Shown here piece after piece: positions 30,946 to 60,070 of a DNA stretch of 64,000 nucleotides (position 1 is the stretch's first letter; each line of letters begins with the position of its first letter). A program made the position numbers and the translations under genes. The stretch comes from Candidatus Zixiibacteriota bacterium (GTDB lineage Bacteria; Zixibacteria; MSB-5A5; GN15; FEB-12), in contig JAOUBJ010000001.1 in assembly GCA_029860345.1 (NCBI GenBank), positions 195,089 through 259,088 on the forward strand. The letters run 5' to 3'. The notes beneath the pieces are model-generated. The model did no database searches, was not told where the DNA came from, and was given only the letters and a program-made list of their open reading frames with translations.

Positions 30946-31058
30946 GAAACACACTCCGCCCCGCCGTCGGCGGGCCATCCCTCTCAAGAGGGGACCCTAT
31001 AAATGAGTCTTGGCCCTACATGCGCCACCAACCTCATGCTGAGCGGAGTCGAAGCATG
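30946..31058. repeat. Hairpin-module cluster, including the left 49-bp direct repeat (30946-30994) and a GAGCGGAGTCGA-loop hairpin (31035-31058)
   Basis: 30946-30994 matches 34865-34913 at 46/49. It contains hairpins cccgcc-gtc-ggcggg and ccctc-tcaa-gaggg. 31035-31058 is catgct/agcatg around the loop gagcggagtcga. Confidence 0.8.
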
Positions 31059-31411
31059 ACACAGCAGAACCGTGAGTAACCGCGAAATGGCTTTGTTTTG
31101 CGGAAAAAAGCTTTTCCCGGGTCCCCCCTCTGAGCAAATGGGTTCGTTTGGTGGGTTTTTGTTTCCCGGTAATAGAATCGATGGTGAATGCGCTGGCCTG
31201 AATAGACACTTATGCATCATTGTGGTCCTTTATAGAATGATGAGAACCCGTGATTTGGATTGGGTCGGTAGTGTTTATGTGCGAGGTGTGGAGTCAGCCC
31301 TGCAGGTGTCGGCACGGGTGCGAAATGTGATTGCCCACGGGAAGACCATGGAGTACCTTTCGTTGATTTGGAATTGCAACTGTGGTATGTGGGTCTTTGG
31401 AGGAGAAGTAG

Positions 31412-32866: not shown

Positions 32867-32874
32867 TTGAATAT

Positions 32875-32955
32875 GTCGAGACCCGCCCTTTGACTGCGCT
32901 CGGGGTGACGGAGTGTCGAAACCTCGCTTCGCGACCCCTTCGGGTCAGGGGTTTC
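32875..32955. repeat. Hairpin-module cluster
   Basis: gtcgaaacc...ggtttcgac is a 9-bp stem enclosing tcgc-ttc-gcga and gaccc-cttc-gggtc, followed by ctacaag. A degenerate reverse copy of the GAGCGGAGTCGA-type module sits at ~32881-32908. Confidence 0.7.
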
Positions 32956-33086
32956 GACCTACAAGACTGTTATCGGCGTCCTGAACAAACAGAGTTCGCA
33001 ATGTTTTGAGATTGATTCTCTGTTTTGTGACACTTATCCTTAAGAGTCTTTAAGGAATCAAAAAACGTTGTCATGGTATCTACGCG

Positions 33087-34787: not shown

Positions 34788-34864
34788 TTCGGGCCGGACT
34801 GCACAATCTCCCTAAATCTCACCGCACCTGATTCGTGCAATGGTTGACGCGCGGCGCGGACAAA

Positions 34865-34913
34865 GAAACACACCCCGCCCCGCCGTCGGCGGCCCACCCC
34901 TCTCAAGAGGGGA
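34865..34913. repeat. Right copy of the 49-bp direct repeat
   Basis: gaaacacaccccgccccgccgtcggcggcccacccctctcaagagggga differs from 30946-30994 at 3 of 49 positions. Confidence 0.8.
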
Positions 34914-35077: not shown

Positions 35078-35208
35078 CTTGTAGGGCGGGTCCGTCTTCG
35101 CCTGCGCGCCGCGGCGTGAACCCGCCATCCGTGAAAGGAGAACAAGGCTCCTAATCTCCAGAAGATGACGCTTGTACAAAGATGGATTCCCGCCTTCGCC
35201 GGAATGAC
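35078..35208. repeat. Hairpin-module cluster (GTAGGG-type module with an internal insertion; ATTCCC...GGAAT-type module)
   Basis: 35080-35126 is gtagggcgggtccgtcttcg[cctgcgcgccgcggcgtg]aacccgcc, compared with the uninterrupted copy at 38672-38699. 35184-35208 is ggattcccgccttcgccggaatgac. Confidence 0.7.
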
Positions 35209-35221
35209 AGATAACGCGCCT

Positions 35222-36511
35222 TTAACCGACAATCCCTGCAAAACCCGCCGGGTCGGTGTCACCTTCGGTGTTGATGACGAGAACGCGGGATGTGGAATCA
35301 ATGTGCAAAAACTCACGGGCAGGTGTAAACGCAGGATCGTTAACGAGTGTCGTGAGAGCTGCCAAACCGGCCGCGCCTGACTCGCCGGAGATTATCCGTG
35401 GGTCATCGTCTGTCGGATAAAAACAGCTCCGCATTGCCTCACGACCGGAGTCGTCACTGATGGACACGAACAGATCATAGCCCTGTTTCACGAAGGGCCA
35501 GGCAATCGGCGATGGTGTGCCGCAATTCAACCCGGCCATAATCGATGATGGGTCGCCTGCAATCGTTATTGGTTCACCATCGGTGGTTTGTATCGACTGC
35601 ATGCAACAGTCGGCAGTCAGTGGTTCGACCGAAACAAGTTTCGGATGCGGTTCGGGATAGATGCGGTTGTAATACCACGCAGCAGCAGCCGCCAGCGCCC
35701 CGACACCGGCTTGCACGATCACCACGTCGACCTGGTTGGCGGCATCTTTATGGATCTCTTCGAACATGGTCAGGTATCCCGCTTGTATCCACCGAGGTAT
35801 CTGCTCATAACCGGGCCAGCCGGTGTCGGAGAGTATCTGCCAGTCACGCGCAAGCGCGTCTTCTCTGCAACGAGCCACAGCAGCATCATAAGATCCATCC
35901 ACAACGATAACTTCAGCACCCTCGTTGCGGATGTTTTCGATTCGCGCCGGGACCGTTTCTTTTGGCATGTAGATCACTGCCTTTTGGGCAAGTTGGCGCG
36001 CCACCCAGGCGACACCGCGGCCATGGTTGCCGTCCGTTGCCGTAGTGAACGTGAAACTCCCGGACGGCAACGGTGAATCTCTGTAGAACCGCTCGGACGG
36101 CGGGCAACTTTGAGAGTTTTCGTTGAGCAACTGTTTGATGACCTGATAGATTGCATAGGTGGAGCCGAGCGCTTTGAAAGCGTTCAACCCGAATCGATGC
36201 GATTCGTCCTTGACCAACAACTCCCCAATGCCGAGTCGCTCAGCCAACACCGGCAGCGACACCAACGGCGTCGGCGCGTACTCTTTGAGTGATCGATGCA
36301 CCGATGACGCTTCGCAGCTTTTGAACTCGGAATTGATCGCATCATCCCAGATGGGAGCAACCTGTCGGTGCCTGTTGATTTCAAAGCATGGTTCCATGGC
36401 GAACAAGCTACAACTATCGCCACTTGCGGTCAATGATTTCGAGTCGACAAAAAAAGCGGGACCTCCGGTTGAAACCGGAAGCCCCGCCCCGCGGACGGCG
36501 GAGAGGGTCAT
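35222..36511 (-). CDS. dpaL: Diaminopropionate ammonia-lyase (PLP-dependent, fold type II)
   Basis: 429 aa. YAPTPL...LLVKDESHRFGLNAFKALGSTYAI matches the DAP ammonia-lyase PLP-lysine region as I recall it from E. coli YgeX. The start ATG 36511 overlaps the upstream stop (ATGA). An alternative internal start is ATG 36397. Confidence 0.75.
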   Translation of the reverse strand: MTLSAVRGAGLPVSTGGPAFFVDSKSLTASGDSCSLFAMEPCFEINRHRQVAPIWDDAINSEFKSCEASSVHRSLKEYAPTPLVSLPVLAERLGIGELLVKDESHRFGLNAFKALGSTYAIYQVIKQLLNENSQSCPPSERFYRDSPLPSGSFTFTTATDGNHGRGVAWVARQLAQKAVIYMPKETVPARIENIRNEGAEVIVVDGSYDAAVARCREDALARDWQILSDTGWPGYEQIPRWIQAGYLTMFEEIHKDAANQVDVVIVQAGVGALAAAAAWYYNRIYPEPHPKLVSVEPLTADCCMQSIQTTDGEPITIAGDPSSIMAGLNCGTPSPIAWPFVKQGYDLFVSISDDSGREAMRSCFYPTDDDPRIISGESGAAGLAALTTLVNDPAFTPAREFLHIDSTSRVLVINTEGDTDPAGFAGIVG

Positions 36512-38532
36512 AGACAGATGGGCGGGGGAGGACCGCCTGCGAACATGTAATCCACCAGGTAGACAAGGTCAGCGATATCGGGCCCCGCACCGTTTGCGTC
36601 GATGTCGCTGGCTTGCCAACATGGTGGCACGCCGCCACCTGAGAACATGTAGTCGACCAGAAAAACCAGATCTGCGATATCCGGTCCCAGACCGTCAAAG
36701 TCAAGATCGGCCCGCACCTCACAGCAGAAGAGCGGGTTGATCCATTCGAAGTAGGCCATCATCTGGGGAAAAACCACATCACGTTCCGTCCACTGGGCAT
36801 CGCCGTTGATGATCGCTTCGAAACCGAACGACAAAAACAGCAGGCGGTAGTCGCCACTGTATGAGACCGCTCCCGAGTTCGGTTTGCCCCAGTATTGCAG
36901 TTCGGCCACACCGCCGTTGATTGGATCGATGTGATCCAGAACGCTCTGATTGTCGGCGCCGCCACTGCCGTCAATCTTAAGCGCGACCGAGGCATCAAAT
37001 ACCTGGGCGCCCGGCTGGGCTGCCAGGTAGGGATAGTAACTTGTCTTGACATACTCGCAACGCAGATAGTTGTGCAAGAAGTCTGCATCGGTCGTGTCCA
37101 GCTGGCCGGCAATACCCTGGCCGCTCAAAAGCAGATTACCACCGGCGTCCAGATACGCCTTGATGGTGATAATCTCGTCCGGTGTTAAGAGATTGCTGCG
37201 GTGGTCTCCGGTAAACCATATTACCATATCGTACTCGCCCAGATGGGCCGCTTGGGGCGTGCCCCAGGATGCGTTCCAAACGTCGTAGGTGGAATCGGTG
37301 TACAGCAGCGCCAGGCGGTAGTACAGGTCGACATCGTTGCCGGCCAGATCATCGTCGACCAACAGCACCGACGCTTCGCCGGTCGATTTGTCAAAGCTCA
37401 AAGTCTGCACCTTGGTGCCGTAGTTGCTCGTCCAGGTGATGGTCAGGCTGAAGGTGGCAACCTGCCTGCCGCAGCCGTTGGGGATATCAAACTCGAACGG
37501 CGTGGCCGCATTGTCTACCGATCCCCCGACCGCCATGTCGCTGAAAGATGCACTGCCCACCGTGACATTTAAGGGCGGCCCGGATACCGACAGTTCTGCG
37601 GATATATCGGAGAGCGCTTCTTCGTGCAGGTTGTCCAGAGTAACGGCAAACTGGATCGTTTCGCCGTCTTCCAGAATACCATCGCCGTCGCCGCCTGAAC
37701 TATCATTGAACGCCAGTCCCCCAATCTGCGGACCTTTCCACATGTCGACAAGATACACCGTGTCGCCCTCGAATTCTGAAATTGCCAACTGATAATCGCG
37801 GTTGTTGAAGCATAGACCGGCCGGTTGGTTATGACCGGACGAAATCAACTCCGGCGGCGCCACAAAATCGTTGTCGTAGCGATAGATTGAACCGTTGGTG
37901 TGAGTGGCCACGTAGACATTGCCACGTGCATCAATGTTGACCCCATCATATCGACCTGGTGAGGTAGTAGTAAGACTCACCACCGTCGAATCATCCATGT
38001 TGACCGCCACAATCTGGGAATTCTGAATGTAGCTGACCACGATAATGCGATTGTTTCGAATATCGAACGTACAATCCTGAATAGCCTGGCCCAAGCCGGA
38101 GGCGAATGTCCAATGTTCACCATCGCTGAGGCGCAGTTTTATGATACGCCCGCCCGTGTCAACGATGTACAAGAAGCCCGAAGTATCGGCTGTGAGGCCA
38201 TCGATACCACCCCAGGCAACGATGCTCTGCTGGAATACCGTAGCCCCGGTGGCGGCGTCCAACCCAACCAGTATTCCGGGCGTTGAGACATACAGCACGC
38301 TATCCACTAAGTGGTTGCCAAGCGTCTGGGTGAGTCCATCCCTGAACGGTGACTGAATGCCCGCGGTGTCGATAGCCACGATAGCCCCATCATACAGGCT
38401 CGATACTAAATAGCGATTATTAATGCTGTCAAACGATATGCTCTCTACCCCGTTTAGCAGATTCTGCCCGTTCACTGACCCCACCACTAACAGGATCAAT
38501 GCCACTATTACTGTGCCTCTTCGTCGATACAT
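36508..38532 (-). CDS. Secreted multidomain protein: N-terminal six-bladed-propeller-like region and two C-terminal dockerin-like repeats
   Basis: The track ORF starts at 38748, but residues 1-72 are translated hairpin repeats. ATG 38532 has a GGAGAGG RBS and a signal peptide (MYRRRGTVIVALILLVVGSVNG). C-terminus: DLDFDGLGPDIADLVFLVDYMFSGG and DIDANGAGPDIADLVYLVDYMFAGG. Confidence 0.7.
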   Translation of the reverse strand: MYRRRGTVIVALILLVVGSVNGQNLLNGVESISFDSINNRYLVSSLYDGAIVAIDTAGIQSPFRDGLTQTLGNHLVDSVLYVSTPGILVGLDAATGATVFQQSIVAWGGIDGLTADTSGFLYIVDTGGRIIKLRLSDGEHWTFASGLGQAIQDCTFDIRNNRIIVVSYIQNSQIVAVNMDDSTVVSLTTTSPGRYDGVNIDARGNVYVATHTNGSIYRYDNDFVAPPELISSGHNQPAGLCFNNRDYQLAISEFEGDTVYLVDMWKGPQIGGLAFNDSSGGDGDGILEDGETIQFAVTLDNLHEEALSDISAELSVSGPPLNVTVGSASFSDMAVGGSVDNAATPFEFDIPNGCGRQVATFSLTITWTSNYGTKVQTLSFDKSTGEASVLLVDDDLAGNDVDLYYRLALLYTDSTYDVWNASWGTPQAAHLGEYDMVIWFTGDHRSNLLTPDEIITIKAYLDAGGNLLLSGQGIAGQLDTTDADFLHNYLRCEYVKTSYYPYLAAQPGAQVFDASVALKIDGSGGADNQSVLDHIDPINGGVAELQYWGKPNSGAVSYSGDYRLLFLSFGFEAIINGDAQWTERDVVFPQMMAYFEWINPLFCCEVRADLDFDGLGPDIADLVFLVDYMFSGGGVPPCWQASDIDANGAGPDIADLVYLVDYMFAGGPPPPICL

Positions 38533-38620
38533 GGTTTTCCTCTCCGTCGAATCGTTTTCTATGTCAATTTCTGTCGCGCCTTTCGTATCAGGGGTGCCGC
38601 CAGCGGTCATCTCTTGCACA

Positions 38621-38736
38621 GGCAGACCTTTTTTTTGCGCTTCGCCATATCCTAACCTCGATCTTAGCAAAGTAGGGTGGGTCCGTCTTCGGACCCGCCT
38701 TTGTTGGCAGGCTTGAAGACAGACCTGCCCTACAAG
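38621..38736. repeat. Hairpin-module cluster in a divergent promoter region
   Basis: ggcagaccttttttttgcgcttcgcc (38621-38646). gtagggtgggtccgtcttcggacccgcc (38672-38699; 9-bp stem, tctt loop). ggcaggcttgaagacagacctgccctacaag (38706-38736). Confidence 0.7.
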
Positions 38737-38839
38737 AGAAGGTTCCACCCAAGCAACCAGCCGGACTATCCCATCCAGTAGTTGCGTCTGTCACTTGTTC
38801 GGCTTATGTTTGTCTGATTATGAGGTACGAAGCAGACCG

Positions 38840-39382
38840 ATGAATCTCAATGACCTCTATAGTGCAGCCCGCAACGGCGACCGGCGCGCCGAGGAAAAGC
38901 TATTTGATGTTCTGACTGCAAGATTCAGGCTGTTTTCGCGCCAGAGAATATGGGACAGCGACGTTTCCGAAGAAGTCGTCCAGGAGAGCCTGTTGACGAT
39001 TTATAAGGAGTACAAGACGATTACCTTTACCTCAAGCTTCGCCGCCTGGGCATACAAAGTACTGAACAATCGGATCCTCGCCCAGATCAAGAAAGGCCAA
39101 AGGCAAGCAAGTCGTTTGCAGCCGTTGCCCGAGGGTGATACAACTGTCGCCCCCGCCTCTGAAGACTTTGACCCGGCCTTGAAACGACGGCTTCTGGATT
39201 GTCTGAAGAAGATTCGTTCCACCAACTTGCGCTACGCCCGGATTCTCAATTTACAGTACCAGGGATTCGATACTGAAGATGTATGCAGGCGATTGGCCGT
39301 GACTCGCAGCAACTTGTATTCGCTGCTATCACGGGCGCGTACGGTTTTGGAGCTATGTCTTGAGGAAGGGGGCGTGCTGTGA
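38840..39382 (+). CDS. ECF-type RNA polymerase sigma factor (sigma-70 family, group 4)
   Basis: Start moved to ATG 38840 (MNLNDLYSAARNGDRRAEEKLF). Region 2 (VVQESLLTIYKEY) and region 4 (ARILNLQYQGFDTEDVCRRLAVTRSNLYSLLSRAR) are recognisable. Confidence 0.85.
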   Translation: MNLNDLYSAARNGDRRAEEKLFDVLTARFRLFSRQRIWDSDVSEEVVQESLLTIYKEYKTITFTSSFAAWAYKVLNNRILAQIKKGQRQASRLQPLPEGDTTVAPASEDFDPALKRRLLDCLKKIRSTNLRYARILNLQYQGFDTEDVCRRLAVTRSNLYSLLSRARTVLELCLEEGGVL

Positions 39383-41682: not shown

Positions 41683-41868
41683 CCCGCCAGGAGTAAAGTG
41701 TCAATCCCAACTTCCCGCACCTTCAAGGTCTCAGTGATTCCAAATAGAAAATGCGTTAACTGTTACCGTAGGAAACCGCTTGAAAACCTATGAACGAAAG
41801 CTTACCTTCACGCCAGACTAAAGACGACCCGAAAACGAAGACAAAACAACCACCGCTCCCCGTCGCGA

Positions 41869-43137: not shown

Positions 43138-43144
43138 GGTAGCT

Positions 43145-50210: not shown

Positions 50211-51076
50211 TGGCTATCCTGGTCGATAATAACAGCAAAGTAATGGTGCAGGGGATCACCGGCGGCGCCGGGAAGTTCCACACCGAGCGAATGCTCACCT
50301 ACGGCACCAATATCATTGGCGGCGCCACGCCGAGCAAAGGTGGCCAGGAAGTGCATGGCCTGCCGGTGTTCGATACGGTTGCAGAATGTGTCGATAATAC
50401 CGGCGCCGATGTATCGGTGATTTTCCTGCCGGCCCGGTTTGTCAAAGAGGCGGCAATCGAAGCGGTCCGGGCCGGGATCAAGTTCCTGGTCATTGTGCCG
50501 GAACATATCCCGATTCATGACATGTTGCACGTTCGCCGTGAAGCGGTCGCGCACGGCGCAACGATCATCGGCGGCAACACCGCGGGCATCATCTCCCCCG
50601 GTCAGGCCAACCTCGGTATCATGCCGGACATCGCGTTCAAACCCGGTCGGGTCGGCACCGTGTCTCGCTCCGGTTCGATAACGTACTACGTCGCCGACAC
50701 CCTCACCCAGTCGGGTTACGGTGAGACAACTTGCGTAGGTTTGGGTGGTGATCCGGTGTTGGGCTCGACCTTCGATGAGATTCTGCTCAAGTTCGAGGAG
50801 GACGATGCAACCAAGGCGGTCGTCATGTGCGGCGAAATCGGCGGCGTCTATGAAGAACGTGCTACCCAAGCGATCAAACAGATGAAAACGCCGGTACTGG
50901 CCATGATCGGCGGCGTCTACGCCCCGCCCGGCAAACGAATGGGTCATGCCGGCGCCATTGTCGAAGGCAAAATGGGAACGGCGCAGGACAAACTGGATGC
51001 TCTGGCCGAAGCCGGAGCACACCCGTGCAAGACCTTTACGGAGATACCCAAGACTCTGGCCAAGCTGGGAGTGTAG
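50210..51076 (+). CDS. sucD: Succinate--CoA ligase alpha subunit
   Basis: 288 aa. VMVQGITGGAGKFH, SRSGSITYY, CVGLGGDP, MGHAGAIV (phospho-His). Start overlaps the sucC stop. Confidence 0.85.
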   Translation: MAILVDNNSKVMVQGITGGAGKFHTERMLTYGTNIIGGATPSKGGQEVHGLPVFDTVAECVDNTGADVSVIFLPARFVKEAAIEAVRAGIKFLVIVPEHIPIHDMLHVRREAVAHGATIIGGNTAGIISPGQANLGIMPDIAFKPGRVGTVSRSGSITYYVADTLTQSGYGETTCVGLGGDPVLGSTFDEILLKFEEDDATKAVVMCGEIGGVYEERATQAIKQMKTPVLAMIGGVYAPPGKRMGHAGAIVEGKMGTAQDKLDALAEAGAHPCKTFTEIPKTLAKLGV

Positions 51077-51135
51077 TCTGGGCAAGGGAAGTGAGCCCTA
51101 TGGAACTTCAGCCCGAACGAAACGTTTAATACTCA

Positions 51136-51459
51136 ATGATCTATGTGCTTTCAAAACCGCGCCTGCTTCAGACTATCGCGGCCCTGGCAGTAGTCCTTTT
51201 TGTGGGGGCTCTTCTTTTGCTAACCGTTGCCGGGGCTCAACCGAATGACTGTAAAGACTGTGACGATGGGTGTGACGGGCACGGCGAGTCGGTCTGCAGT
51301 TGCATAGGTTGCGCTCCTGTTATGGCGGCCTGTCGGGTCTTACCGCCGGAACTCGGTCCTCCGCAAACCCACTGTTGCTTAGCCCCAATCTCTCCTCTTG
51401 AATTGCTCGAATCCGATTGGTTTGATCGTCTGGATCGGCCACCACAAACCCTTTCTTAG
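51136..51459 (+). CDS. Small Cys-rich membrane-anchored protein (hypothetical)
   Basis: 107 aa. One TM helix, then DCKDCDDGCDGHGESVCSCIGCAPVMAAC and HCC. Coding status rests on the ORF and its context with the downstream metal-binding gene only. Confidence 0.4.
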   Translation: MIYVLSKPRLLQTIAALAVVLFVGALLLLTVAGAQPNDCKDCDDGCDGHGESVCSCIGCAPVMAACRVLPPELGPPQTHCCLAPISPLELLESDWFDRLDRPPQTLS

Positions 51460-51603
51460 TTTTTACTTGCAAACGATCAGTGTTCTTGGCCAAATTCCTT
51501 GGGTCCATGTTTGGCGAAGGACGCGGTTCGGTCACTTGGTGTTGTGAACCAAATCGATCGCATAATTATGCAAATGAGAATTAACAGCAAAGGTACAGAA
51601 AAT

Positions 51604-51927
51604 ATGATCAATCGAATAACCCTTCTAACTCTTGTTCTTGCCTTGTCCACACTCGCAATCGCCTGCGGCGGTGGTAAGAACTTCAGCCTCACCGAGGAAC
51701 CGGGAACGGAGATTCGTATCTACGAAGTCTTCGGCATGGACTGTCCCGGCTGTCATGTCGGTGTTGAAAAACTGGTCAATCGGGTTGATGGTGTCGTGAC
51801 CTCCGTGGCCAACTGGACGAAGAAACAAATTGCCATCAAGGTGCGCTCGTCGGATAACGTTTCCGACGAGGCTATCTTCGACGCCATTAAAGAAGCCAAC
51901 TTTACCCCCGGAAAACGTCTCGACTGA
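51604..51927 (+). CDS. Heavy-metal-associated (HMA) domain lipoprotein
   Basis: Start at ATG 51604 (MINRITLLTLVLALSTLAIAC lipobox). GMDCPGCHVGVEK is the GMxCxxC HMA motif. Confidence 0.8.
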   Translation: MINRITLLTLVLALSTLAIACGGGKNFSLTEEPGTEIRIYEVFGMDCPGCHVGVEKLVNRVDGVVTSVANWTKKQIAIKVRSSDNVSDEAIFDAIKEANFTPGKRLD

Positions 51928-51941
51928 TTATGGGAGATAAC

Positions 51942-52790
51942 ATGCTTAAAAAGACACTTCTGATATTTGTGGCCCTGAGTCTATCCCTGGCTACTGTACC
52001 GGACTTGACGGCCGGAGGCATTAGTGCCGATGCCGGTCTCACACCGGCGCACGACAAGTGGATGTTTCGCACGCAAGCGCGCTTGAACAGATTGAAGAAC
52101 GCGCCCGACCAGATGACCCGCGAGATGGACATGTACATGTTCCCGCTGGTGATCGCCTACGGCGTCCGCTCGGATCTGACCGTGATGATCCGTCAGCCGC
52201 TTATGCGTATGAACATGACTATGGCCGGCAACACCACTCACACCACCGGGTTTGGCGACCTGATGCTTATGACCAAGTACCGCGCCGTCCGGCGCAACAC
52301 CCCGACCTATACCTTCGGCGTCGCACCACTGCTTGGCATCAAGCTCCCCACCGGCGAAGATGACATCTCCGCGAACGCAACTTCGCTCAAAACCGGGTTG
52401 TTCGTCTCGGGCCGCATTCAACCGTGGGCGTCCGAGTTGAATTTTACTTATACACTCAACGGTCTGACCGGCGACGACGACCGCGAGGAGTACCAGGTTC
52501 TCGAATTCGTGGGCGCTTTTGCTCGTCAGTTCAGTCTCACCGAGGACGGACGCAGAGCGATCGCGCCGGTGGTCGAGCTGTCGTATGAACATGCTACCGC
52601 CACAGAGATCGATAATGTTGAACAGCCTAACAGCGGTGGATCGTTGCTCCGGGTCGCACCGGGCGCGAAGTTAACAATCTCAGGGGTCGTCTTTGAGTCA
52701 CTGTTGTGGATTCCGGTCTGGGAAGATTTGAACGGCAACCAACTCGAGTACGACATCGGCGGCCTGATCGGCCTGCGCGTGATGCTGTAA
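51942..52790 (+). CDS. Outer-membrane beta-barrel protein (possibly the MetA-pathway/transporter-like family)
   Basis: Start at ATG 51942 with a GGGAGA RBS. Signal peptide, alternating beta-strand pattern, TGFGDLMLMTKY motif, aromatic-rich C-terminus. The specific family is a guess. Confidence 0.5.
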   Translation: MLKKTLLIFVALSLSLATVPDLTAGGISADAGLTPAHDKWMFRTQARLNRLKNAPDQMTREMDMYMFPLVIAYGVRSDLTVMIRQPLMRMNMTMAGNTTHTTGFGDLMLMTKYRAVRRNTPTYTFGVAPLLGIKLPTGEDDISANATSLKTGLFVSGRIQPWASELNFTYTLNGLTGDDDREEYQVLEFVGAFARQFSLTEDGRRAIAPVVELSYEHATATEIDNVEQPNSGGSLLRVAPGAKLTISGVVFESLLWIPVWEDLNGNQLEYDIGGLIGLRVML

Positions 52791-53112
52791 GGTGGCAAGC
52801 CACTCTTTCGCGCTTCGCGCGCCCGTACTGTCACCCACTGCTTGACCGTGTCACCCTGAGCGGAGTCGAAGGGTCCATCTTCTCTTGTAGGGCGGAACCC
52901 TCGTAGCGGTTCCGCCTTTCAGTCCCACAGCAAGCTGTGGGGCACCCCAACTCGAATACGACGTTGGCGGCTTGATCGGCCTGCGCGTGATGTCGGAACC
53001 ACAGGGGTTCCGACCTACTATTCGGACCTACTATTCGAACTTCGCCGGAATGACACAGTCAAGATGAGATTGCCGCGGCCTCGCGAAGCGCGCGGCCTCG
53101 CAATGACGGAGC
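52791..53112. repeat. Hairpin-module cluster that also contains a 45-nt copy of the upstream gene's 3' end
   Basis: M1 52794-52820; M4 52852-52874; M6 52887-52916. Gene-end copy at 52948-52992. gtcggaacc-acagg-ggttccgac at 52992-53014. Tandem 13-mer gacctactattcg x2 at 53012-53037. attgc...gcgaagcgc...gcaat hairpin at ~53068-53105. Confidence 0.8.
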
Positions 53113-53219
53113 GGTGAGTGAAACGCAAGATATCCATTCATGAGCACCCCACTTTATCCTTCCCTTGCCCGCCGTGGCATCGTATTATCTGAAAAAGCGA
53201 ATCCATACCCGGAGGTCCG

Positions 53220-54257
53220 ATGTTTAAGACACTAGTGTCATGCATGGTCACGATGATTCTGGCGGTAGTAGTAATCACACCCACATTTGCCCAACGCCCG
53301 GAACCGAAAAAAGAAGAAATCCGCGGGCATACCATGTATACCCTCATGGAACCGGGTGGCATACCGGCCATATTCGAGCCGGAATTTGTATCCATCGAAG
53401 TAGCCGACTCGTTTTATTACGATGATGAACCGTTGATCGCGGTGTCATCCGGCAGCGTCGCGCGAGGCTACAGCACCTGGCATCTGGACCATCACGAAAT
53501 CGTCAATGACATGCTTGAAGGAACGGCTATCGCCGTCACCTGGTGACCGCTTTGTTTTACAGGCATAGTTTATGCCTCTGAGATCGACGGACAGGTGTTC
53601 ACGTTTCAAGCTTCGGGATCGCTCTGGCAGGACGCCCTGGTTATGCACGACCGTGAGACCGAATCGCTCTGGCCGCAGCCGTGGGGCGAGTGTTTCAAGG
53701 GAGCTTCCGAGGGCAAGAAACTAACCGAGTACCCGGCCATTCATACAACTTACTCAGAGTTCAAAAAACTCTACCCGCACGGCCAACTATTGAAGAAGCC
53801 CGAAAGAGGCGAAGCTGGTTCACCATACTCAAGGTACTTCGCCGACCCGGAGAAGCTGGGTATGTTCGGCAGGCTCAACAATTACGAACAGATGCCCGGT
53901 AAAGACAAAGTGTTTGGAATCCGCAGCGGCGACCAGCAAGTGGCGGTGTCTCTGGCTCTCTTGAAAAGGAGGGGTTACACCTTGGTTACCGGTGTGGGCG
54001 ATCCGATGATAGTCACTTACGATTCGACATCCGAAACCGCCTCAGCTCTTGCATTTGAGGGCGACCAGAGAGCATCGGTCAAAGGTCTTAGAGTTTATAG
54101 CGACAGTATCATCGGACCCGGCGGCGTGACTGTTTGGCACCCTCGGACCGGCAAAGCCATCCGGGGTGAAGGCTCGGACCTGCCGGTTGTACCGACTATG
54201 AGCGCATACTGGTTTGCCTGGTTGAGTTTCTTCCCGGAGACTGAGCTGGTCGATTAG
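53220..54257 (+). CDS. DUF3179-family secreted protein with one in-frame TGA (53544-53546) at the first Cys of the conserved CPLC motif; candidate selenoprotein (otherwise a pseudogene)
   Basis: Track ORFs 53220..53546 and 53595..54257 are in the same frame, with no other stop between them. Joined product: ...GGIPAIFEPEFV...DDEPLIAV...ARGYSTWHLDHHEIVND...AIAVTW-[TGA]-PLCFTGIVY...FQASGSLWQDALVMHDRETESLWPQ...YWFAWLSFFPETELV. This matches my recollection of DUF3179 (VTYCPLCGT, SGKL..S.LVMYDR.T.SLWSQ, FWFAW..F.P.T.V). GGAGG RBS and a signal peptide are present. Confidence 0.7.
53554..53584 (+). promoter_or_regulatory. Candidate bacterial SECIS stem-loop downstream of the in-frame TGA
   Basis: The upper stem aggcata/tatgcct (53561-53567 / 53571-53577) encloses the loop GTT (53568-53570). 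A lower stem, guuuua with ugagau (53554-53559 / 53579-53584), forms using G-U pairs, separated from the upper stem by a C.C mismatch. The hairpin starts 8 nt after the UGA and its loop starts 21 nt after it. The G-U in the loop recalls the fdhF SECIS. Confidence 0.5.
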
Positions 54258-54344
54258 TGCCGGAACTTGCCAGTTGAGAACAACCCGATTTATCGGTGGT
54301 TTGCCTGGTTGAGTTTCTACCCGGAGACTGAGCTGGTGAATTAG
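54211..54344 (+). repeat. Direct duplication of the DUF3179 gene's last 47 nt, including the stop
   Basis: 54211-54257 ggtttgcctggttgagtttcttcccggagactgagctggtcgattag versus 54298-54344 ggtttgcctggttgagtttctacccggagactgagctggtgaattag. There are 3 mismatches and a 40-nt spacer. Confidence 0.85.
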
Positions 54345-54505
54345 TTGCTAGTCTCTTGTGGTGGCTGATTCTTCGGACTCGGCCACTACCCACGCGATCT
54401 GAAGATCACGCGGGCACAAGATACTCAATTAACAAAATAGGACATTTCTATCTTGCTAAAAACCGGACATTTCTGTTTTGCCTTGACATTGGGGCTATTT
54501 GGGGA

Positions 54506-54534
54506 TTGACTAAACGCTCTATTTTCGGTATATT
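54506..54534 (+). promoter_or_regulatory. Candidate sigma70-type promoter for the 1657-aa gene
   Basis: TTGACT 54506-54511, a 17-nt spacer, then TATATT 54529-54534. A second TTGACA sits at 54483-54488. It is ~140 nt upstream of ATG 54673. Confidence 0.35.
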
Positions 54535-54672
54535 CTCACTCGATAGGGTATTTGTCATTTCTTCAGCCGCGGTAGTGCAGGCTATCGGCAGGCTGTGCCC
54601 TCGGAGGTTCTGCGAACCTCTCGCTGAATCTCCATACCACGACGACGATATCAGGACACCGAGGAGTACAAC

Positions 54673-57600
54673 ATGTCTCACCGATTCTCCCTTACATTGC
54701 TCACTCTGTTGATTCTGCTCACCCTCACCGGTTGGACCTGGGCAGGCAACACGTCTAAAGATGGGCTGAACCCGATTCCAATCAGCAACCCGAACGCTCA
54801 ACTCTATAATGACATCGAAGACGCTCGTCCGGCACCGGCTACTTTTAAGAAGCCGATGACGGAAGGTCCTTTCGAGGTCCAGATGTCCGGCGTTGCTTCA
54901 AGTCCTCCGTCAGCCTACTTCTGTGAAGACTTAGGCTACTACGACGACACGGTTACATCCGTCTGGGTGTGGAGTATTCCGGATGCCTGGGGCGACGATC
55001 TCATGAATATGCGCTTTACCGTCGAAGAAGGTATTGAGTGTACTCTGAAGGTCGGTTGGGTCCTGATGTATGGTGGTTTTGCCACCGGTACACCGGATAT
55101 GCGGGTGTACCTATGGGACGACGACGGCTTCGGTTTCCCCGGCAACAAGCTGGACTCGACCGATGTACCTAATGCCGCCATGGGCGGATCCTTCTGGTGG
55201 GCCGAAGCCAACTGGTCGGCTGCCGATTGGGTCTTCACCAATGGTGAAGAATACCATATCGGCTGGACGACCCTGGGCGGCGACGGCGACACGTTGTGGT
55301 GCGTGTCCGATAAAGGTACCGGTCCCCACTCGTACACTGGTGAACAACGGGCCAGTGAAAACTGGAACGGCTTTTGGGGTACGATGTACGACGACTGGGG
55401 CGAGGATGTATGTTTCCTCATGACATCTGAGCGTTGTTGCTATGAGTTACCTTTTACCGATTGCTATTCTCAAAGCTGGGATGAGGGCACTGCCTACTGG
55501 TGGAAAGCTCCCCACGACGCTTATGGTATTATCGACTATGCACAGCGGTTTACTGTCACTGGGGTTGAAACCCTTCAGTCTGTAGATATCGATGTCTACG
55601 ACTTTACGGGTTCCTCCTCGCAGAACGCCGGTATCGTCGGTAATGACGACTTGATTATCAGTGTATGGGATGACAATGCCGGCTATCCCGGCTCGGTTAT
55701 TGCGCAAGAAACCGTCCCGGCGGGGACCTATGTGTACCATCCGGCCTATACTAACGTTGATTTCTCATCACACAATCTGGTGCTGGGTTCCGGGGACTTC
55801 TATGTCTCCTTCAACTCGACCGGTGATCTCGGTGCCGGCGACTTTGAGGGTACCTTGTCGGATGATGAAACGGATGGCCACGGTCGCTCATACTGTATCT
55901 ACGGTGGCGATTGGTGGACCATCGGTGATCTCTTCGGAATCGATGTCGACATGAAGTACACAGCAAATTTGTGTGATGACCCATTCTTCGAGTGTGAATT
56001 GGCTTTCTACGACACGGGTCCGGTCTATTACTGGACTTTGCCGGATGCTTACGGCGACGTCGCCAATGCCCAGTTGATCAAGTCTGTTGGGAAGGCGTGC
56101 GAAGTCAGAGAAGTCTCCTGGGCTCTTCATGATTTCAATCCGGGCGTGGCCTATGCTCACAACTCAGTGGTTTCAGTCCACGAGGACGTGGGTGGTCTGC
56201 CCGGACCGGCCCTGGCCTCGGTCACCCTAACTCCGGCTGATTATGTGATGTACCCCGGTTACACTTCGGTCGACTTCGCACCCTTGGCTGTCAGCGTTCA
56301 GGGACTATACTGGATTTCAATCGAATCCTTGTCACCGACCGAAGCCGAAGGTATTGCTACCCTGACCGATTTTGGCGGCGGCGGCTGGAACTATGGTGCC
56401 GCCGAACTCTGGAATGGTTTCTGGGGTCTGCTCTGTCTGGATTGGAACGGCGTGCCTTGTGATATTGCTTTCGTCGCCAAATCCTATCATTGCTGTCAAC
56501 CACACTGTTGCTGCCCCTGCCAAGGAGATCCGGGTTGGGCTACGCATCAGCACGATCAGCAGCGTACCGGCGCATCGTTCAATTCCTTTGGCGACGCCCA
56601 GTGTGACTTGACAACGCAATGGTGCTACACCCACCCGACCAACCAGATATTTTATACCGGTCCGGCTATTTCGGGCGACAAGGTTGTTTGCGCCTGGGAT
56701 AATGAAGTCAAGGTGTTTAACCTGACGACGGGCTTTGAAGCTTATACCCTGTCCGGTTTTCCGCTGGGCAACCAGATCAGATGTACGCCGCACATACAGG
56801 ATAGCGTGATGTATCTGACCGGCGGAGATCAGCAATCTGTTAGCGCTTGGGACTTCGCTACCGGCGCTATGATCTGGAGCCGTGATATTACCAGTGTCGG
56901 TGTCGGCGGCCTGTTTGGGCAGACCCGTTACGGTTCCTTTATAATTCTGGAACAGGGTAGCGGCGACGTATTGTACTTCGGTACGGATGACGGTGCTATC
57001 GTTGCTGTCGATGCAGCCACCGGCGCTCTGTACTCAGGCTGGACGGTGAACCCGGTGTATATCGCTCCCGGTGCTCCACTGAAATCCGGCTCGACCGACG
57101 GCTTACAGCTTTTCTACAACACCTATCCGGGTGGTGTGGAAGGTGATGTTTACGCCATCGACGCCGCTACCGGCGCTATCAACTGGCAGTTGTCAACATC
57201 CGGCGGCCTACAGGCTGCTGCGGTCTACCCGGAAGGGCCGCAGGGTGGTGAAGGTTTTGCCGCACCTAACGCGGTCAGTCTGGAAAATGGTCTTCTGTTT
57301 GTCAATTCAAGTATTGCCGCTCCGTATCATCCCGGGGATGGTGTCTTCTACGCCATCAACACTTCTGACGGTTCAGTAGCCTACGCGGTGCCTTCGCACC
57401 GTCCCAACACTGCCGGTACCGCCGCCGGTCCGGTAATCGACCGTGCACGTGTCTATCAGGCCGGTCAGTCCTGGTGGGCGACTCCCCCGTCAGGTGGTTT
57501 GATTCTTGCTTTCAACAAGACCACCGGCTCCTATGTGTGGGCGACCTCCAGCCCCGAGTATAACACATACCGCGGTGATATGGCTCTCACCTGCGGAAAA

Positions 57601-59646
57601 GACGGTGAGGCGCCACTGTTGTTCGCAATCGGTCACCACGGCTTTATCAGCACATTGAACTCTGCCACGGGTGAGGAAATCTACCGTCGTCGTATTACCT
57701 ATGGTGGATTCCCCAACTCAATAGCTCTGAGCGCAGCGATAGGACCCGGCGTCGTGGCTATTAGTGACCTTTACGGTACACTTTCTGTTCTGGCCAAAGG
57801 TGAAGATCGTCCGCGCCTGGAAATTCAGTCGTACCAGCCTTCTCCATCGGTGGAGTTTGGTCCGGCCACTTCATTGCACGTGCCGATCCCGAACCGGTTG
57901 GTCAACACCGGTTGTGCCGACCTGACCTTCGGTCAGCTTGAGACCAACACCTCTGCGAACCATCCGTGGATACCGCCGGACTTCGCTCCGGCCAACGTGC
58001 GTCCCGATGTAATGGATCGCGCAGCCGGTATCACTGATCGTTTGACCGAAGGCTTCGAGACCAAAGCTATCCCGGCGCGACCGGAAGCTGAGGTCGATGA
58101 CTATTTCGTCATTCGTGACCGTGGTGAACAGTCGTTGAACCTGGGTGCCGATGCAGGAGTTCCGTTCCTGCAGTATGCGACTCACACCGAAGCGGTCGTT
58201 TGGCCACACGCCGGTGACATTCTTGCCGCCGGTGACACGGCTGACCTCGTTATCGATGTCAACCAGTCGCTGATCGTTCGCGGACCACAGGATTTCTATA
58301 TGGTGATCCCCAGCGACGATCCTGATTTCTATCTGCACGACGTCTGTGGCAACACGCTCTACGGTCCGCCCGAAATCCACGTAACTATCGTCGGTGGCTG
58401 TCTTGTTGATACCACCACCATGCAGTTCGGCATGGGTGGCGGTAACACTCAACTCGTGACCAACAATGGCCGTATCGGTACCGGCGACTGGGACCCGCAC
58501 GCAATGGATATAGACGGCGACGACGCCTCGATCTACCAGGGTTCGTTCATCTATGCCACCGGCCTATATGAGGTGGCCCTAAGCACCCAGGATTGGTATT
58601 CCGGCGGCGGCGAGGACGAGGCGTATCGGTCGATGCAGCCGGACCCGAACTGGTGTGACGACCAGTGCAAGGCGCACATCGATGAGGGTGTCGTCCTGAG
58701 TTGTCTCGGTGGCTACTCCTCAGACGGTATAACTTACACCCCAATCATGGGTAACCGAGTTTGTGTAACCTATCTTGACTCCGTTCAGGACTTCGGAACT
58801 TCTTGGGATTGGTCAAACTACGATGCACCGTTCAGTAATGATCTGACCATGGGTCTCATGGTGAACTCACGCACGGTGGGTGCTTATGACTTTGAGCCGC
58901 TGAAGGACCTCACCGTTGACATCATGGAATTCACCGAGCGCAACGGCGACTCGGTCACAGGCTGGGCTTTCGGCACCACCATGGACTACGACGTCGGAAG
59001 TGATGATATCGCTTCACGTTCTGCGGAAGGATCGGCGGCCTGGGTCTCCAACGGTGGAGTGGGCGATGTCCAATGGGGTATGATCAAGTTCCCGTTCGGA
59101 TGCGGAAGTAACGAGGCGGCAGGCGGCAACAATACAAACGTAGACTACGTCCCGATGATCAATACGGTGTCCGGACACGGCGACGGCATGTGGTTTAACG
59201 TTCCCACCCTCTATCTCGATTCCGCCTGGGACTACCTCAACCGGCCGGCCGGTGAGTATTCTCAAGCGCCGTTCACCAGCGATAGGGAAGCTCACTTCAC
59301 CATTGCCAAACACGATTTTGCCGGTGGCGATACTTATGAGATGGCTGTGGCTCAGTTCGGTCTGCACGGCACTTCGGGCGATGCAACTGAAATCAATGCC
59401 CTGGCCAAGCTGGCCAACAAGTGGCTCGGTTTTGGTCGTGGCGATGTCAACAATGACGGCAATGTTGATCTTGGCGACGTAGTTTGTCTGGCCAGGTACG
59501 TGACTGGTAACGGCCCCGGACCGATTCCGTTCATGCACCTGGGTGATGTCGATTGTGACGGTGACGTTGATATGGACGATGTGGTGTATCTTGCCGAATT
59601 CCTGTATGACAATGGACCTTGCCCGTGTGGTGACTGGTGCTTCTAG
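54673..59646 (+). CDS. Giant secreted protein: three N-terminal ~180-aa beta-sandwich-like repeats, a PQQ/BamB-like beta-propeller, and a C-terminal dockerin-like module
   Basis: 1657 aa. Signal peptide MSHRFSLTLLTLLILLTLTGWTWA. Repeated W.W..PDAWGD/PHDAYG/PDAYGD modules. Propeller repeats (SAWDFATGAMIWS, VAVDAATGALYSGW, YAIDAATGAINWQL, YAINTSDGSVAYA). C-terminus GDVNNDGNVDLGDVVCLARYV...GDVDCDGDVDMDDVVYLAEFLY. Confidence 0.75.
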   Translation: MSHRFSLTLLTLLILLTLTGWTWAGNTSKDGLNPIPISNPNAQLYNDIEDARPAPATFKKPMTEGPFEVQMSGVASSPPSAYFCEDLGYYDDTVTSVWVWSIPDAWGDDLMNMRFTVEEGIECTLKVGWVLMYGGFATGTPDMRVYLWDDDGFGFPGNKLDSTDVPNAAMGGSFWWAEANWSAADWVFTNGEEYHIGWTTLGGDGDTLWCVSDKGTGPHSYTGEQRASENWNGFWGTMYDDWGEDVCFLMTSERCCYELPFTDCYSQSWDEGTAYWWKAPHDAYGIIDYAQRFTVTGVETLQSVDIDVYDFTGSSSQNAGIVGNDDLIISVWDDNAGYPGSVIAQETVPAGTYVYHPAYTNVDFSSHNLVLGSGDFYVSFNSTGDLGAGDFEGTLSDDETDGHGRSYCIYGGDWWTIGDLFGIDVDMKYTANLCDDPFFECELAFYDTGPVYYWTLPDAYGDVANAQLIKSVGKACEVREVSWALHDFNPGVAYAHNSVVSVHEDVGGLPGPALASVTLTPADYVMYPGYTSVDFAPLAVSVQGLYWISIESLSPTEAEGIATLTDFGGGGWNYGAAELWNGFWGLLCLDWNGVPCDIAFVAKSYHCCQPHCCCPCQGDPGWATHQHDQQRTGASFNSFGDAQCDLTTQWCYTHPTNQIFYTGPAISGDKVVCAWDNEVKVFNLTTGFEAYTLSGFPLGNQIRCTPHIQDSVMYLTGGDQQSVSAWDFATGAMIWSRDITSVGVGGLFGQTRYGSFIILEQGSGDVLYFGTDDGAIVAVDAATGALYSGWTVNPVYIAPGAPLKSGSTDGLQLFYNTYPGGVEGDVYAIDAATGAINWQLSTSGGLQAAAVYPEGPQGGEGFAAPNAVSLENGLLFVNSSIAAPYHPGDGVFYAINTSDGSVAYAVPSHRPNTAGTAAGPVIDRARVYQAGQSWWATPPSGGLILAFNKTTGSYVWATSSPEYNTYRGDMALTCGKDGEAPLLFAIGHHGFISTLNSATGEEIYRRRITYGGFPNSIALSAAIGPGVVAISDLYGTLSVLAKGEDRPRLEIQSYQPSPSVEFGPATSLHVPIPNRLVNTGCADLTFGQLETNTSANHPWIPPDFAPANVRPDVMDRAAGITDRLTEGFETKAIPARPEAEVDDYFVIRDRGEQSLNLGADAGVPFLQYATHTEAVVWPHAGDILAAGDTADLVIDVNQSLIVRGPQDFYMVIPSDDPDFYLHDVCGNTLYGPPEIHVTIVGGCLVDTTTMQFGMGGGNTQLVTNNGRIGTGDWDPHAMDIDGDDASIYQGSFIYATGLYEVALSTQDWYSGGGEDEAYRSMQPDPNWCDDQCKAHIDEGVVLSCLGGYSSDGITYTPIMGNRVCVTYLDSVQDFGTSWDWSNYDAPFSNDLTMGLMVNSRTVGAYDFEPLKDLTVDIMEFTERNGDSVTGWAFGTTMDYDVGSDDIASRSAEGSAAWVSNGGVGDVQWGMIKFPFGCGSNEAAGGNNTNVDYVPMINTVSGHGDGMWFNVPTLYLDSAWDYLNRPAGEYSQAPFTSDREAHFTIAKHDFAGGDTYEMAVAQFGLHGTSGDATEINALAKLANKWLGFGRGDVNNDGNVDLGDVVCLARYVTGNGPGPIPFMHLGDVDCDGDVDMDDVVYLAEFLYDNGPCPCGDWCF

Positions 59647-60070
59647 GCCACAAGTGGCCCTTCTGGCGCTTCGCGCGGTCATAAATGACTCTTTCGCGCT
59701 ACGCGCGCCGTTCTGTGCGTGGTGTACGTCCTCATGCGCCACGGTGATAAATCACTTTCTCGCGCTTCGCGTGCCCAGAATCTAACTCAGTGCATCTCTT
59801 CAACCTCACCCTTAGCGGAGTCGAAGGGTGCACGGTCAAGCCGTGTTCTTGTGGCTATGCCACGCGTTGACCCAAAAGCGCGCGAAGCGCAAAAACCAGG
59901 CTTGCCTGTGGTTCGACTCCGCTCACCATGAGGTTGCGCGCGAAGCGCGAGAGACCCATTTATGGGTGTCATTCCCGCACCCCTTTGTCATTCCCGCGAA
60001 GGCGGGAATCTATCCGTATTGCGGTTCGCTCAAAGCTGAAGATGGACCCCCGCCTTCGCGGGGGTGACGA
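59646..60070. repeat. Hairpin-module cluster between the convergent giant genes
   Basis: ggccac-aa-gtggcc at 59646-59659. Three gcgct(t/a)cgcg units at 59659-59776. M4 at 59807-59830 and reverse at 59909-59927. M1 reverse at 59880-59906. M5 at 59987-60010 with a half-copy at 59968-59978. cccccgc-cttc-gcggggg at ~60046-60063. Confidence 0.8.

Follow-up and report, generated by a model that had tools for sequence, protein, structure and literature searches.

The intergenic regions in a stretch of a metagenome-assembled genome from Candidatus Zixiibacteriota raise the question of what kind of element fills the space between genes with short hairpins that recur, change order, and turn around from one gap to the next. 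The stretch, which is 64,000 nt long and is hereafter called the window (GenBank assembly GCA_029860345.1, contig JAOUBJ010000001.1, positions 195,089 to 259,088 of the forward strand), has a G+C content of about 55% and is densely coding. Nine of its intergenic stretches, between 30.9 and 60.1 kb, hold about 40 copies of roughly a dozen hairpin modules of 17-65 nt each. An initial annotation had described eight stretches as mosaics of such modules; all eight were found to hold repeated modules, with boundaries placed correctly to within a few bases, and two further sites were recognized, at 54297-54415 and 4465-4494. The mosaics are probably clusters of short palindromic repeats that belong to several independent families and have been copied around the genome as DNA, in the manner of the bacterial interspersed mosaic elements (BIMEs) of E. 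coli and the intergenic mosaic elements of Neisseria (NIMEs). The families can be identified, their structure is constrained, they have spread by copying, they turn over fast, and they are restricted to intergenic DNA.

Repeat content and turnover of the intergenic mosaics

Modules were located by repeat finding across the window and by blastn-short comparison of the intergenic regions with the whole window. Module A, TGTC-ATTCCCGC-GAAG-GCGGGAAT-CCA, is present as four full and two half copies. Module B (six copies) combines a TGTC or CCTC tag with a covarying stem of 5-6 bp and an invariant 12-nt loop, GAGCGGAGTCGA. Module C (nine copies and one C-like element) consists of a variable hairpin of 4-5 bp whose loop is CAAG or TAAA, a T-run, and then GCGCGCTTCGCGCGC, and module E, in which CTTGTAGG precedes a GC-rich hairpin, amounts to about nine units, several of them in inverted doublets. 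Two copies each were found of D, F, G, and H; I, J, K, and L are single hairpins.

Measured against dinucleotide-preserving shuffles of the window, the cores are clearly overrepresented. The 26-mer of A, with up to three mismatches, occurs three times (0.00 expected), the B loop, with up to one mismatch, five times (0.48 expected), GCGCTTCGCGC, also with up to one mismatch, nine times (2.2 expected), and CTTGTAGG, matched exactly, five times (0.94 expected). All these core matches are intergenic. Likewise, nearly all repeat matches of the module-rich regions link one intergenic region to another, and coding sequence was touched by a single 14-nt match in the blastn-short comparison. Relative to shuffles, the folding of module-rich intergenic regions gave z = -7.4, -9.5, and -6.0, against z = +0.43 for a control, a 527-nt intergenic region of the same window that carries no modules. 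As single-stranded DNA, A, D, E, and G form stable hairpins (z from -3.2 to -5.4). The initial description of the modules as stem-loops is consistent with this strong folding but needs qualification in the case of B, which alone forms no stable hairpin by nearest-neighbour energies (-2.5 kcal/mol, z = 0.0); its stem is accepted because covariation, not folding energy, supports pairing.

Other elements of that description were confirmed. Module order and orientation both vary among the stretches, as is borne out by the coordinates in the window, and the loops are of the types GAAG in A, TTC or GAA in C, and TCTT in E. The clusters lie mainly at gene 3' ends, after stop codons or between convergent genes, and one site, at 38617-38736, lies between two divergent genes, which by the L001 gene calls start at 38532 (minus strand) and 38840 (plus strand). 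The recurring peptides of spurious open reading frames (ORFs) can be traced to their modules, VIPAKAGI and DSRLRGND to A, LSGVEG to B, and GKPGFCASR to C; no papers were found in the literature on these peptides. Rfam covariance models yielded no match at the gathering score, and chance-level matches only at E up to 5.

These elements have spread by copying and have not evolved in place. The inverted E doublet at 38672-38736 is about 93% identical to a sequence in a relative (L143:2365-2426), and the two sites are non-homologous, the divergent promoter region in the window and the 3' side of an aldehyde dehydrogenase gene in L143, which indicates that the doublet was copied rather than evolved locally. 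That aldehyde dehydrogenase gene, at 44548-45969 in the window, encodes a protein listed by NCBI under 'candidate division Zixibacteria bacterium', and its relatives at 81-94% identity are mostly Zixibacteria by name as well. In L130 (GCA_004196255.1; 91% identity), A, B, C, E, and J are present, in other intergenic regions; more distant relatives (86 and 82%) have A-like copies only, or almost none.

Turnover was assessed from the sequence 3' of the same aldehyde dehydrogenase stop codon in the window and in three relatives at 91-94% amino-acid identity, L143, L144, and L130. The stop codon is followed in the window by C, G, and D and then further modules, in L143 (94%) by G and a 62-nt E doublet, in L144 (94%) by a unit of the E3 type, inside which the contig ends, and in L130 (91%) by a terminator-like hairpin and then A, A, E, B, and A. 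Four different module sets are thus found at the same gene end in close relatives, which argues for fast turnover. Gene order past the aldehyde dehydrogenase is not kept in L130, L131, and L133, and the comparison was confined to stop-codon-proximal sequence; with the 744-aa neighbour gene as query, no relative was found in the genome scan and only distant, partial ones in the metagenome scan.

Rearrangements are also visible. For three genes, a duplicate of the last 45-49 nt lies downstream, 91-94% identical and among or beside modules. In L143 (2311-3471, compared with 45970-54257 of the window; 94% identity relative), the aldehyde dehydrogenase gene is directly adjoined by two DUF3179 genes in inverted orientation, which indicates an inversion or deletion with its ends in the module-rich regions at about 46.0-46.5 and 54.3-54.4 kb. 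The three gene-tail duplications and the L143 breakpoint in a module-rich intergenic region appear to be footprints of recombination.

Module families

A reading of the modules as akin to repetitive extragenic palindromic sequences (REPs) or BIMEs, as the initial annotation had suggested, agrees with their GTAG and CGTC/TGTC tags, their inverted dimers, their position at 3' gene ends, and their presence in related Zixibacteria. Two REP superfamilies have been distinguished, tagged by GTAG and CGTC, respectively (Di Nocera, De Gregorio and Rocco, 2013; BMC Genomics 14:522, PMC3733652). In CGTC REPs, the tag may read TGTC or CCTC, the stems are of 8-9 bp and begin with AT, the loops are of 4-5 nt, and the tail is CCA; the CGTC-1 group includes dRS3 of Neisseria, and a transposase for the CGTC class was not found (PMC3733652).

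Module A displays the CGTC-1 features, namely a TGTC or CGTC tag, a stem of 8 bp that begins with AT, a loop of 4 nt, and a CCA tail. It has been shown that NTS (CGTCATTCCCGCGMAVGCGGGAATCYRG), a motif which is longer than dRS3 and directional, accounts for about half of the dRS3 copies (Chenal et al., 2025; Nat Commun 16:2388, PMC11893778). SsnA, a 94-aa single-domain GIY-YIG protein of the cd10448 type, binds NTS as single-stranded DNA (ssDNA) only and cuts upstream of it; the RNA form of the motif is not bound, and cleavage at the A-type motif was demonstrated in vitro (PMC11893778). Ssn-related motifs (SRMs) flank 71% of ssnA homologues across phyla, and binding and cutting of ssDNA by the cognate Ssn have been demonstrated for the Neisseria and Wolbachia homologues only (PMC11893778). 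The SRM search pattern taken from that study, HGTCWYN(0-2)YYVSBRHN(0-5)WNVSBRGN(0-2)RNCYNB, which calls for a directional head, then a hairpin, and a C behind the palindrome, has four matches in the window, which are the four full copies of A, against 0.74 in mononucleotide shuffles. Its sequence thereby places module A among the CGTC-1/dRS3-type REPs and within the SRM/NTS pattern.

The full A copies are found at 35182-35209 on the minus strand (TGTCATTCCGGCGAAGGCGGGAATCCAT), at 46310-46337 on the plus strand (TGTC-ATTCCCGC-GAAG-GCGGGAAT-CCAT; DNA fold -8.9 kcal/mol, z = -3.6), at 59986-60013 on the plus strand, where a half copy precedes it at 59967-59981, and at 60042-60069 on the minus strand. 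This last copy is a variant, CGTC-ACCCCCGC-GAAG-GCGGGGGT-CCAT, with compensatory stem changes, and its stem variant recurs among the A copies of IMG/VR. The second half copy, at 53040-53056 (minus strand), is identical to 35194-35209 at 16 of 16 positions. At least 120 IMG/VR contigs contain the exact 23-mer of A; among the matches listed, CCA directly follows it in 104 of 121 copies. In these loci, A-type hairpins stand directly upstream of GIY-YIG ORFs, and translation of the hairpin gives an 'SFPRRRES' leader in frame with the ORF. In other genomes, the orientation of A toward flanking ORFs is unbiased (20 same, 14 opposite). The idea that the hairpin with its 3' CCA mimics a tRNA minihelix, as a substrate of RNase P or of the CCA enzyme, was dropped in view of this unbiased orientation and of the indifference of SsnA to the RNA form.

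Module E can be assigned on its sequence to the GTAG-tagged REPs, often arranged as inverted doublets (REPINs). REPs of this class have an unpaired GTAG (or GTRG) head beside a palindromic stem of 5-13 bp and would number tens to hundreds per genome. Six units start with GTAGG and one with GTATG (32915, 35078, two in 38672-38736, 46396, 52884, and 52992), stems are of 5-10 bp, and doublets of the REPIN type (<130 bp) are found at 38672-38736, 46396-46459, and 52884-53018. In addition to the nine units in 64 kb, further copies are present in L130, L143, and L144. The unit designated E3, at 32915-32965 (minus strand; CTTGTAGG + GTCGAAACC...GGTTTCGAC), has near-identical copies at L130:3636-3664 and L144:3131-3190, and that at 35078-35126 (plus strand) joins CTTGTAGG to GCGGGT...ACCCGC with a large loop. 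The REPIN at 38672-38736 is made of two inverted GTAG REPs (GTAG...CTAC) with a 62-nt core (DNA fold -17.7 kcal/mol, z = -5.35), and a degenerate one lies at 46396-46459 (GTATGG...CCTACAAG). Two more units are at 52884-52916 (plus strand; CTTGTAGG + GGCGGAACC...GGTTCCGCC; DNA z = -4.4) and 52992-53018 (minus strand; GTCGGAACC...GGTTCCGAC + CTAC). Right after the latter, a short tandem duplication at 53012-53037 (CCTACTATTCGGA / CCTACTATTCGAA) repeats the CTAC tail of the unit.

The copies of module B lie at 31032-31060 (plus strand; CCTC tag, stem ATGCT/AGCAT, loop GAGCGGAGTCGA, with compensatory stem changes relative to other copies), 46216-46243 (plus strand; variant loop GAGCGGAGTTGG), 46260-46288 (minus strand; TGTC tag, stem ATGCC/GGCAT), 52849-52882 (plus strand; TGTC tag and a tail, CCATCTTC, common to module A), and 59804-59831 (plus strand; loop TAGCGGAGTCGA). 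The sixth, at 59909-59933, stands between two C copies (59878-59910 and 59936-59968), all three inverted (minus strand); this cluster, 59878-59968, forms together with 59743-59831 a large composite palindrome. Compared with CGTC-1 REPs, B has the tag, and in one copy the tail, but its loop departs from the class because it is 12 nt long instead of 4-5 nt.

The 15-nt core of B is present in at least 120 loci of species-representative genomes from many phyla, including, among the matches listed, Bacteroidota, Acidobacteriota, Cyanobacteria, Planctomycetota, Chloroflexota, Patescibacteria, Spirochaetes, and others. By our arithmetic, any 15-mer is expected about 1100 times in 596 Gb. The core matches are not due to chance, however, since a pairing C occupies position -1 in 144 of 152 distinct contexts, stem pairs 3 and 4 form in 89-93% of copies, as opposed to 28-53% with a slid partner, all four Watson-Crick pair types are in use, and a TGTC or CGTC tag precedes 52 of the 152 contexts. 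The orientation of B relative to flanking ORFs of other genomes is unbiased (31 same and 23 opposite in one set, 10 and 13 in the other). A and B, which are interleaved in the window, occur together in 0 of 120 and 1 of 120 of the other loci examined. A hammerhead or other ribozyme was considered for B and rejected, as its core is unlike CUGANGA...GAAA and it has no Rfam match.

When the ORFs within 2 kb of B hairpins were clustered, one family recurred besides phage structural genes, that of small GIY-YIG proteins with a single domain (Pfam PF01541). B hairpins are found on both sides of the GIY-YIG genes in L024, L085, L068, and L106. Among loci picked by the protein and not by the hairpin, the GIY-YIG gene of L388 is flanked by B-type hairpins with the loop variant GAGCGAAGCGA, those of Cloacibacterium rupense (L392-394) have arrays of B pairs on both sides, and that of a Cyclobacteriaceae locus (L395) has a B hairpin on one side only. 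Several of these genes lie within tandem arrays of inverted B pairs with a period of about 85-170 nt (L392:700-1000 and 1307-1500, L024:300-1060, L085:1333-2573), and in L024 the gene is surrounded by a repeated unit made of a gene tail plus hairpins. Most contigs carrying this GIY-YIG family are shorter than 3 kb, suggesting that such arrays break assemblies. A viral scan with the B-type GIY-YIG alignment returned mostly AT-rich phage genes resembling homing endonucleases, without hairpins, L388 alone being informative, and the name Zixibacteria is absent among 120 listed homologues of the L024 protein. A second and very large clade of Ssn-like ssDNA nucleases, single-domain GIY-YIG proteins with their centre in Bacteroidota and Ignavibacteria, may use B, with its GAGCGGAGTCGA loop and relatives such as GAGCGAAGCGA, as its recognition hairpin, a class of motif that the published SRM pattern misses; we find this proposal as easy to doubt as to accept. 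If it is correct, this Zixibacterium would join two Ssn-type motif classes, REPINs, and a lineage-specific two-hairpin module, C, that targets or works at stop codons.

Module C is distinguished by its position. At 45969, 52791, and 59646, it starts 0-2 nt from a stop codon and is co-oriented with the gene. The copy at 45969-46000 (plus strand) takes the final base of the aldehyde dehydrogenase stop codon as its first and comprises a 4-5-bp hairpin with a CAAG loop, the T-run, and GCGCTTCGCGC; that at 52791-52823 (plus strand) directly follows the TAA stop (52788-52790) of a Phenol_MetA_deg gene; and the first of three copies within 59646-59775 (plus strand; starting at 59646, 59677, and 59743) overlaps the stop codon of a 1657-aa gene. 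A copy at 46466-46498 (minus strand) is co-oriented with the convergent minus-strand gene, a degenerate one at 38617-38646 (plus strand) lies in the divergent promoter region, and the C-like element at 53075-53101 (minus strand) contains GCGAAGC. The first helix of C has two-sided changes in all five pairs, with 94% of cells paired, and the second is conserved in sequence; the paired fraction or covariation score observed for the whole structure was reached by 0 of 500 shuffles. A cosmopolitan distribution of C was rejected: among 80 IMG/VR loci (81 matches) with its GC core, none has the architecture of first hairpin plus T-run, so that these matches look like chance and C appears to be limited to this lineage.

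Among the less frequent modules, F, at 30956-30994 (plus strand), comprises two adjacent GC hairpins (ccgccccgccgtcggcgggcc + cccctctcaagagggga; DNA fold -10.6 kcal/mol) 11 nt past the stop codon of an S-methyltransferase gene, and its region is 94% identical over 49 nt to that of the copy at 34875-34913. The latter is part of an orphan copy of the gene tail (last ~45 nt) plus F, at 34830-34913 (plus strand), which aligns with 30910-30994 and lies 3.9 kb from the original. G (46013-46037, plus strand; CCGTCAaGCG-ACCC-CGCgTGACGG; DNA z = -5.1) has a 96% identical second copy at 46355-46379 (plus strand), and the copy in L143 shows compensatory changes. D (46057-46093, plus strand; GTGTCGGGCGAGATCGCCCAACACC...; DNA z = -3.2) has a 92% identical second copy at 46496-46532 (plus strand), which abuts the stop codon of a minus-strand gene. 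A second gene-tail copy, at 52947-52992 (plus strand), reproduces the last 46 nt of the upstream gene at 91% (original 52739-52784) and is enclosed by two E REPs. The third forms part of the site at 54297-54415, where a 94% copy (54297-54344) of the last 48 nt of a DUF3179 gene (original 54210-54257) is followed by an E-like GTGG/CTAC hairpin (54355-54389) and by hairpin J (54389-54415), the reverse complement of a terminator-like hairpin in L130. H at 4465-4494 (minus strand) is the sole module copy seen in the first 30 kb; with its other copy, at 59714-59743 between the C copies, it forms a 97% complementary inverted pair of 30 nt, 55 kb apart. C, D, F, G, and J were seen in Zixibacteria loci only, among the loci examined.

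The top repeat families of the window are unrelated to these modules; they are FG-GAP/VCBS-type tandem repeats (GDYDNDGDLDLYV-like) within the coding sequence of several large secreted proteins (8429-13551, plus strand; 21251-22436, minus strand). A 107-aa Cys-rich ORF with a hydrophobic N-terminal segment lies at 51136-51459 (plus strand) inside a 527-nt gap; it is uncalled in public contigs and has no Pfam match.

Mobilization and competing explanations

How such elements might move can be outlined from the known systems. The hairpins would extrude as ssDNA, and enzymes specific for hairpins, with their genes in other parts of the genome, would recognize them: A and probably B would be served by an Ssn-type GIY-YIG nuclease, E by a REP-associated tyrosine transposase (RAYT, HUH-Y1). 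New copies would survive at harmless sites, just past stop codons and between convergent genes, so that clusters would accumulate there, and several copies in both orientations would then drive duplications and inversions and leave gene-tail relics by recombination. Effects on transcripts, through 3' hairpins or a weak terminator in C, would be secondary. The lack of orientation bias of A and B toward ORFs in other genomes favours such a DNA-level element.

Several observations weigh against this scheme. Searches of the 64-kb window and of about 71 kb of related Zixibacteria loci yielded neither an Ssn-type GIY-YIG gene nor a RAYT gene, using a hidden Markov model built from seven GIY-YIG ORFs, which gave nothing significant, and a scan of ORFs for the HUH...Y motif that covered the window and all 1.1 Mb of compared DNA; the enzymes and their action in trans are thus assumed, not seen. 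The Neisseria A-type repeat has been tied to a Group 2 RAYT and not to Ssn (Bertels and Rainey, bioRxiv 10.1101/2021.07.10.451892), which, set against the Ssn work, leaves the mobilizing enzyme of A-type elements unsettled in the literature. Module B falls outside the published SRM pattern when compared by hand, and its apparent link with GIY-YIG genes is drawn from about nine loci. In the window, all six B copies are co-oriented with the gene on their own side, a possible hint of a role at the level of transcripts here. There is no candidate enzyme for C, D, G, F, and J, and for C, which sits at stop codons co-oriented with the upstream gene and has an internal T-run, an RNA function fits at least as well as neutral accumulation.

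The last two points lead to the strongest competitor, which is possible though less likely than DNA-level spread and is live above all for module C: the modules would primarily be RNA elements, 3'-UTR hairpins that act in U-tract-free termination or in protection against 3' exonucleases, with C as a lineage-specific terminator after stop codons. The location of most clusters, the covariation in C and its T-run at three stop codons, and the co-orientation of the B copies are all in keeping with this view, and many REPs are transcribed, as has been argued (Di Nocera et al., 2013; PMC3733652). On the other hand, terminator-like sites in the window show no enrichment relative to shuffles (22 vs. 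18.7 and 21 vs. 17.7). Modules had initially been described as lacking U-tracts and thus as unlike classical terminators; C does have a T-run, between its two hairpins, but the modules do not conform to an intrinsic terminator, in which a U-tract directly follows a GC-rich hairpin, this sole T-run coming after a weak 4-5-bp stem. Separate canonical terminators exist in this lineage, as in L130, and the window has hairpins followed by T-runs at about 60127-60185, as read from the sequence, and at 36453-36490 (both minus strand). The former sits between the stop codon of a 1232-aa gene and the module cluster, which therefore lies past a normal terminator. A and B are unbiased relative to the ORFs of other genomes, SsnA does not bind the motif RNA (PMC11893778), one cluster occupies a divergent promoter region, and identical composite elements at non-homologous sites denote spread by copying and not local evolution of terminators.

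It is rather unlikely that all modules, A and B included, are REPs or REPINs mobilized by RAYTs, with GIY-YIG nucleases being irrelevant. RAYTs were the only enzymes considered in the initial annotation, which correctly reported none in the window, where no HUH-Y1 ORF was found; yet A belongs to the Ssn GIY-YIG motif class, and B stands near GIY-YIG and not RAYT genes elsewhere. E does have the GTAG head typical of RAYT-associated REPs, and the Neisseria repeat ATTCCCGCGCAGGCGGGAATC forms REPINs in genomes with Group 2 RAYTs (bioRxiv 10.1101/2021.07.10.451892). The sole HUH-Y1 ORF in the 1.1 Mb scanned (L020:1553-2212; NF047646, E = 2.7e-13, under the family cut-off) has an inverted pair of B-like hairpins 60-140 nt upstream. 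However, four of its homologues, from other taxa, carry the hairpin GGAGACGCAATGCATTGCGTCTCC in their flanks and none carries B, and the link between B and RAYTs was rejected on this ground. Moreover, no tyrosine transposase was found beside CGTC repeats (Di Nocera et al., 2013; PMC3733652), many loci have A or B hairpins on the flanks of GIY-YIG genes, and SsnA cleaves at the A-type motif in vitro (PMC11893778). The GGAGACGCAATGCATTGCGTCTCC hairpins flank a Bacteroidota RAYT family, as seen in L134, L137, and L139, and a copy lies in frame inside the L020 gene (L020:1880-1915; HRRDAMHRVST), which is the REP-within-tnpA arrangement known from RAYT subclass 2.4.

An artefact of assembly or binning, for instance through chimeric joining at repeats, can be dismissed: although repeats do break assemblies, with short contigs of relatives often ending in modules (L144) and many GIY-YIG contigs below 3 kb, contigs from three assemblies of different source (ENA, JGI, and Logan) match the window at 100% identity over 37961-55056, a span of 17 kb including three module-rich intergenic regions, and the modules, far from being restricted to this contig, occur in other genomic contexts of related Zixibacteria and across phyla.

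Relation to known repeat systems

These mosaics extend the REP/REPIN and SRM landscapes to Zixibacteria, a phylum known here only from metagenome bins, and present three or more repeat systems interleaved within one genome. In practical terms, the hairpins yield spurious ORFs (VIPAKAGI, SFPRRRES, LSGVEG, etc.), break assemblies, and mark rearrangement breakpoints, and annotators and binners would be well advised to mask them. The B hairpin beside small GIY-YIG genes, missed by the SRM pattern, could add to the known site-specific ssDNA nucleases, a group with potential use as tools.

With respect to the SRM/NTS system, module A equals the NTS consensus CGTCATTCCCGCGMAVGCGGGAATCYRG except for the first and last bases, and its copies are intergenic and clustered; B has an HGTCW head and a tail and flanks GIY-YIG genes elsewhere. 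In contrast to that system, the window has no ssnA homologue, it holds only four full A copies that do not bracket particular genes, and B, with its conserved 12-nt loop outside the SRM pattern, goes with a GIY-YIG clade of the Bacteroidota/Ignavibacteria type.

Among the REP superfamilies, E corresponds to a GTAG family, with a GTAG head, GC-rich stems of 5-10 bp, and head-to-head dimers, and A to CGTC-1; the coexistence of several families in one genome and their location past ORFs are also shared. However, in C, D, G, F, and J the defining unpaired position holds neither tag, the B loop has 12 nt instead of 4-5, and Zixibacteria are not mentioned in the REP survey (PMC3733652). Like the elements of REPIN-RAYT systems (Nunvar, 2010; Bertels and Rainey, 2011, 2022), the E doublets each fold into a long hairpin from a pair of inverted REPs and occupy non-homologous sites in related strains, but no RAYT gene was seen, and the E stems are heterogeneous, of at least four types, with no single master sequence.

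The differences from mosaic elements lie in composition. NIMEs are regular dRS3-RS-dRS3 arrays with RS units of 50-150 bp (Bentley et al., 2007; PLoS Genet 3:e23), whereas the clusters of the window hold one to three A each, A being a minority component that does not bracket the other modules; the motif sets of BIMEs (Y/Z palindromic units and S/L/A/B linkers) are unrelated in sequence. The likeness lies in architecture: arrays between genes, in which palindromic units and other short repeats are mixed in variable order and orientation and which are dynamic between strains, with A fitting the dRS3 consensus ATTCCC-N8-GGGAAT. The intergenic regions of the window are best regarded as a BIME/NIME-like mosaic of already known kinds of repeats, in a phylum where they were previously unreported.

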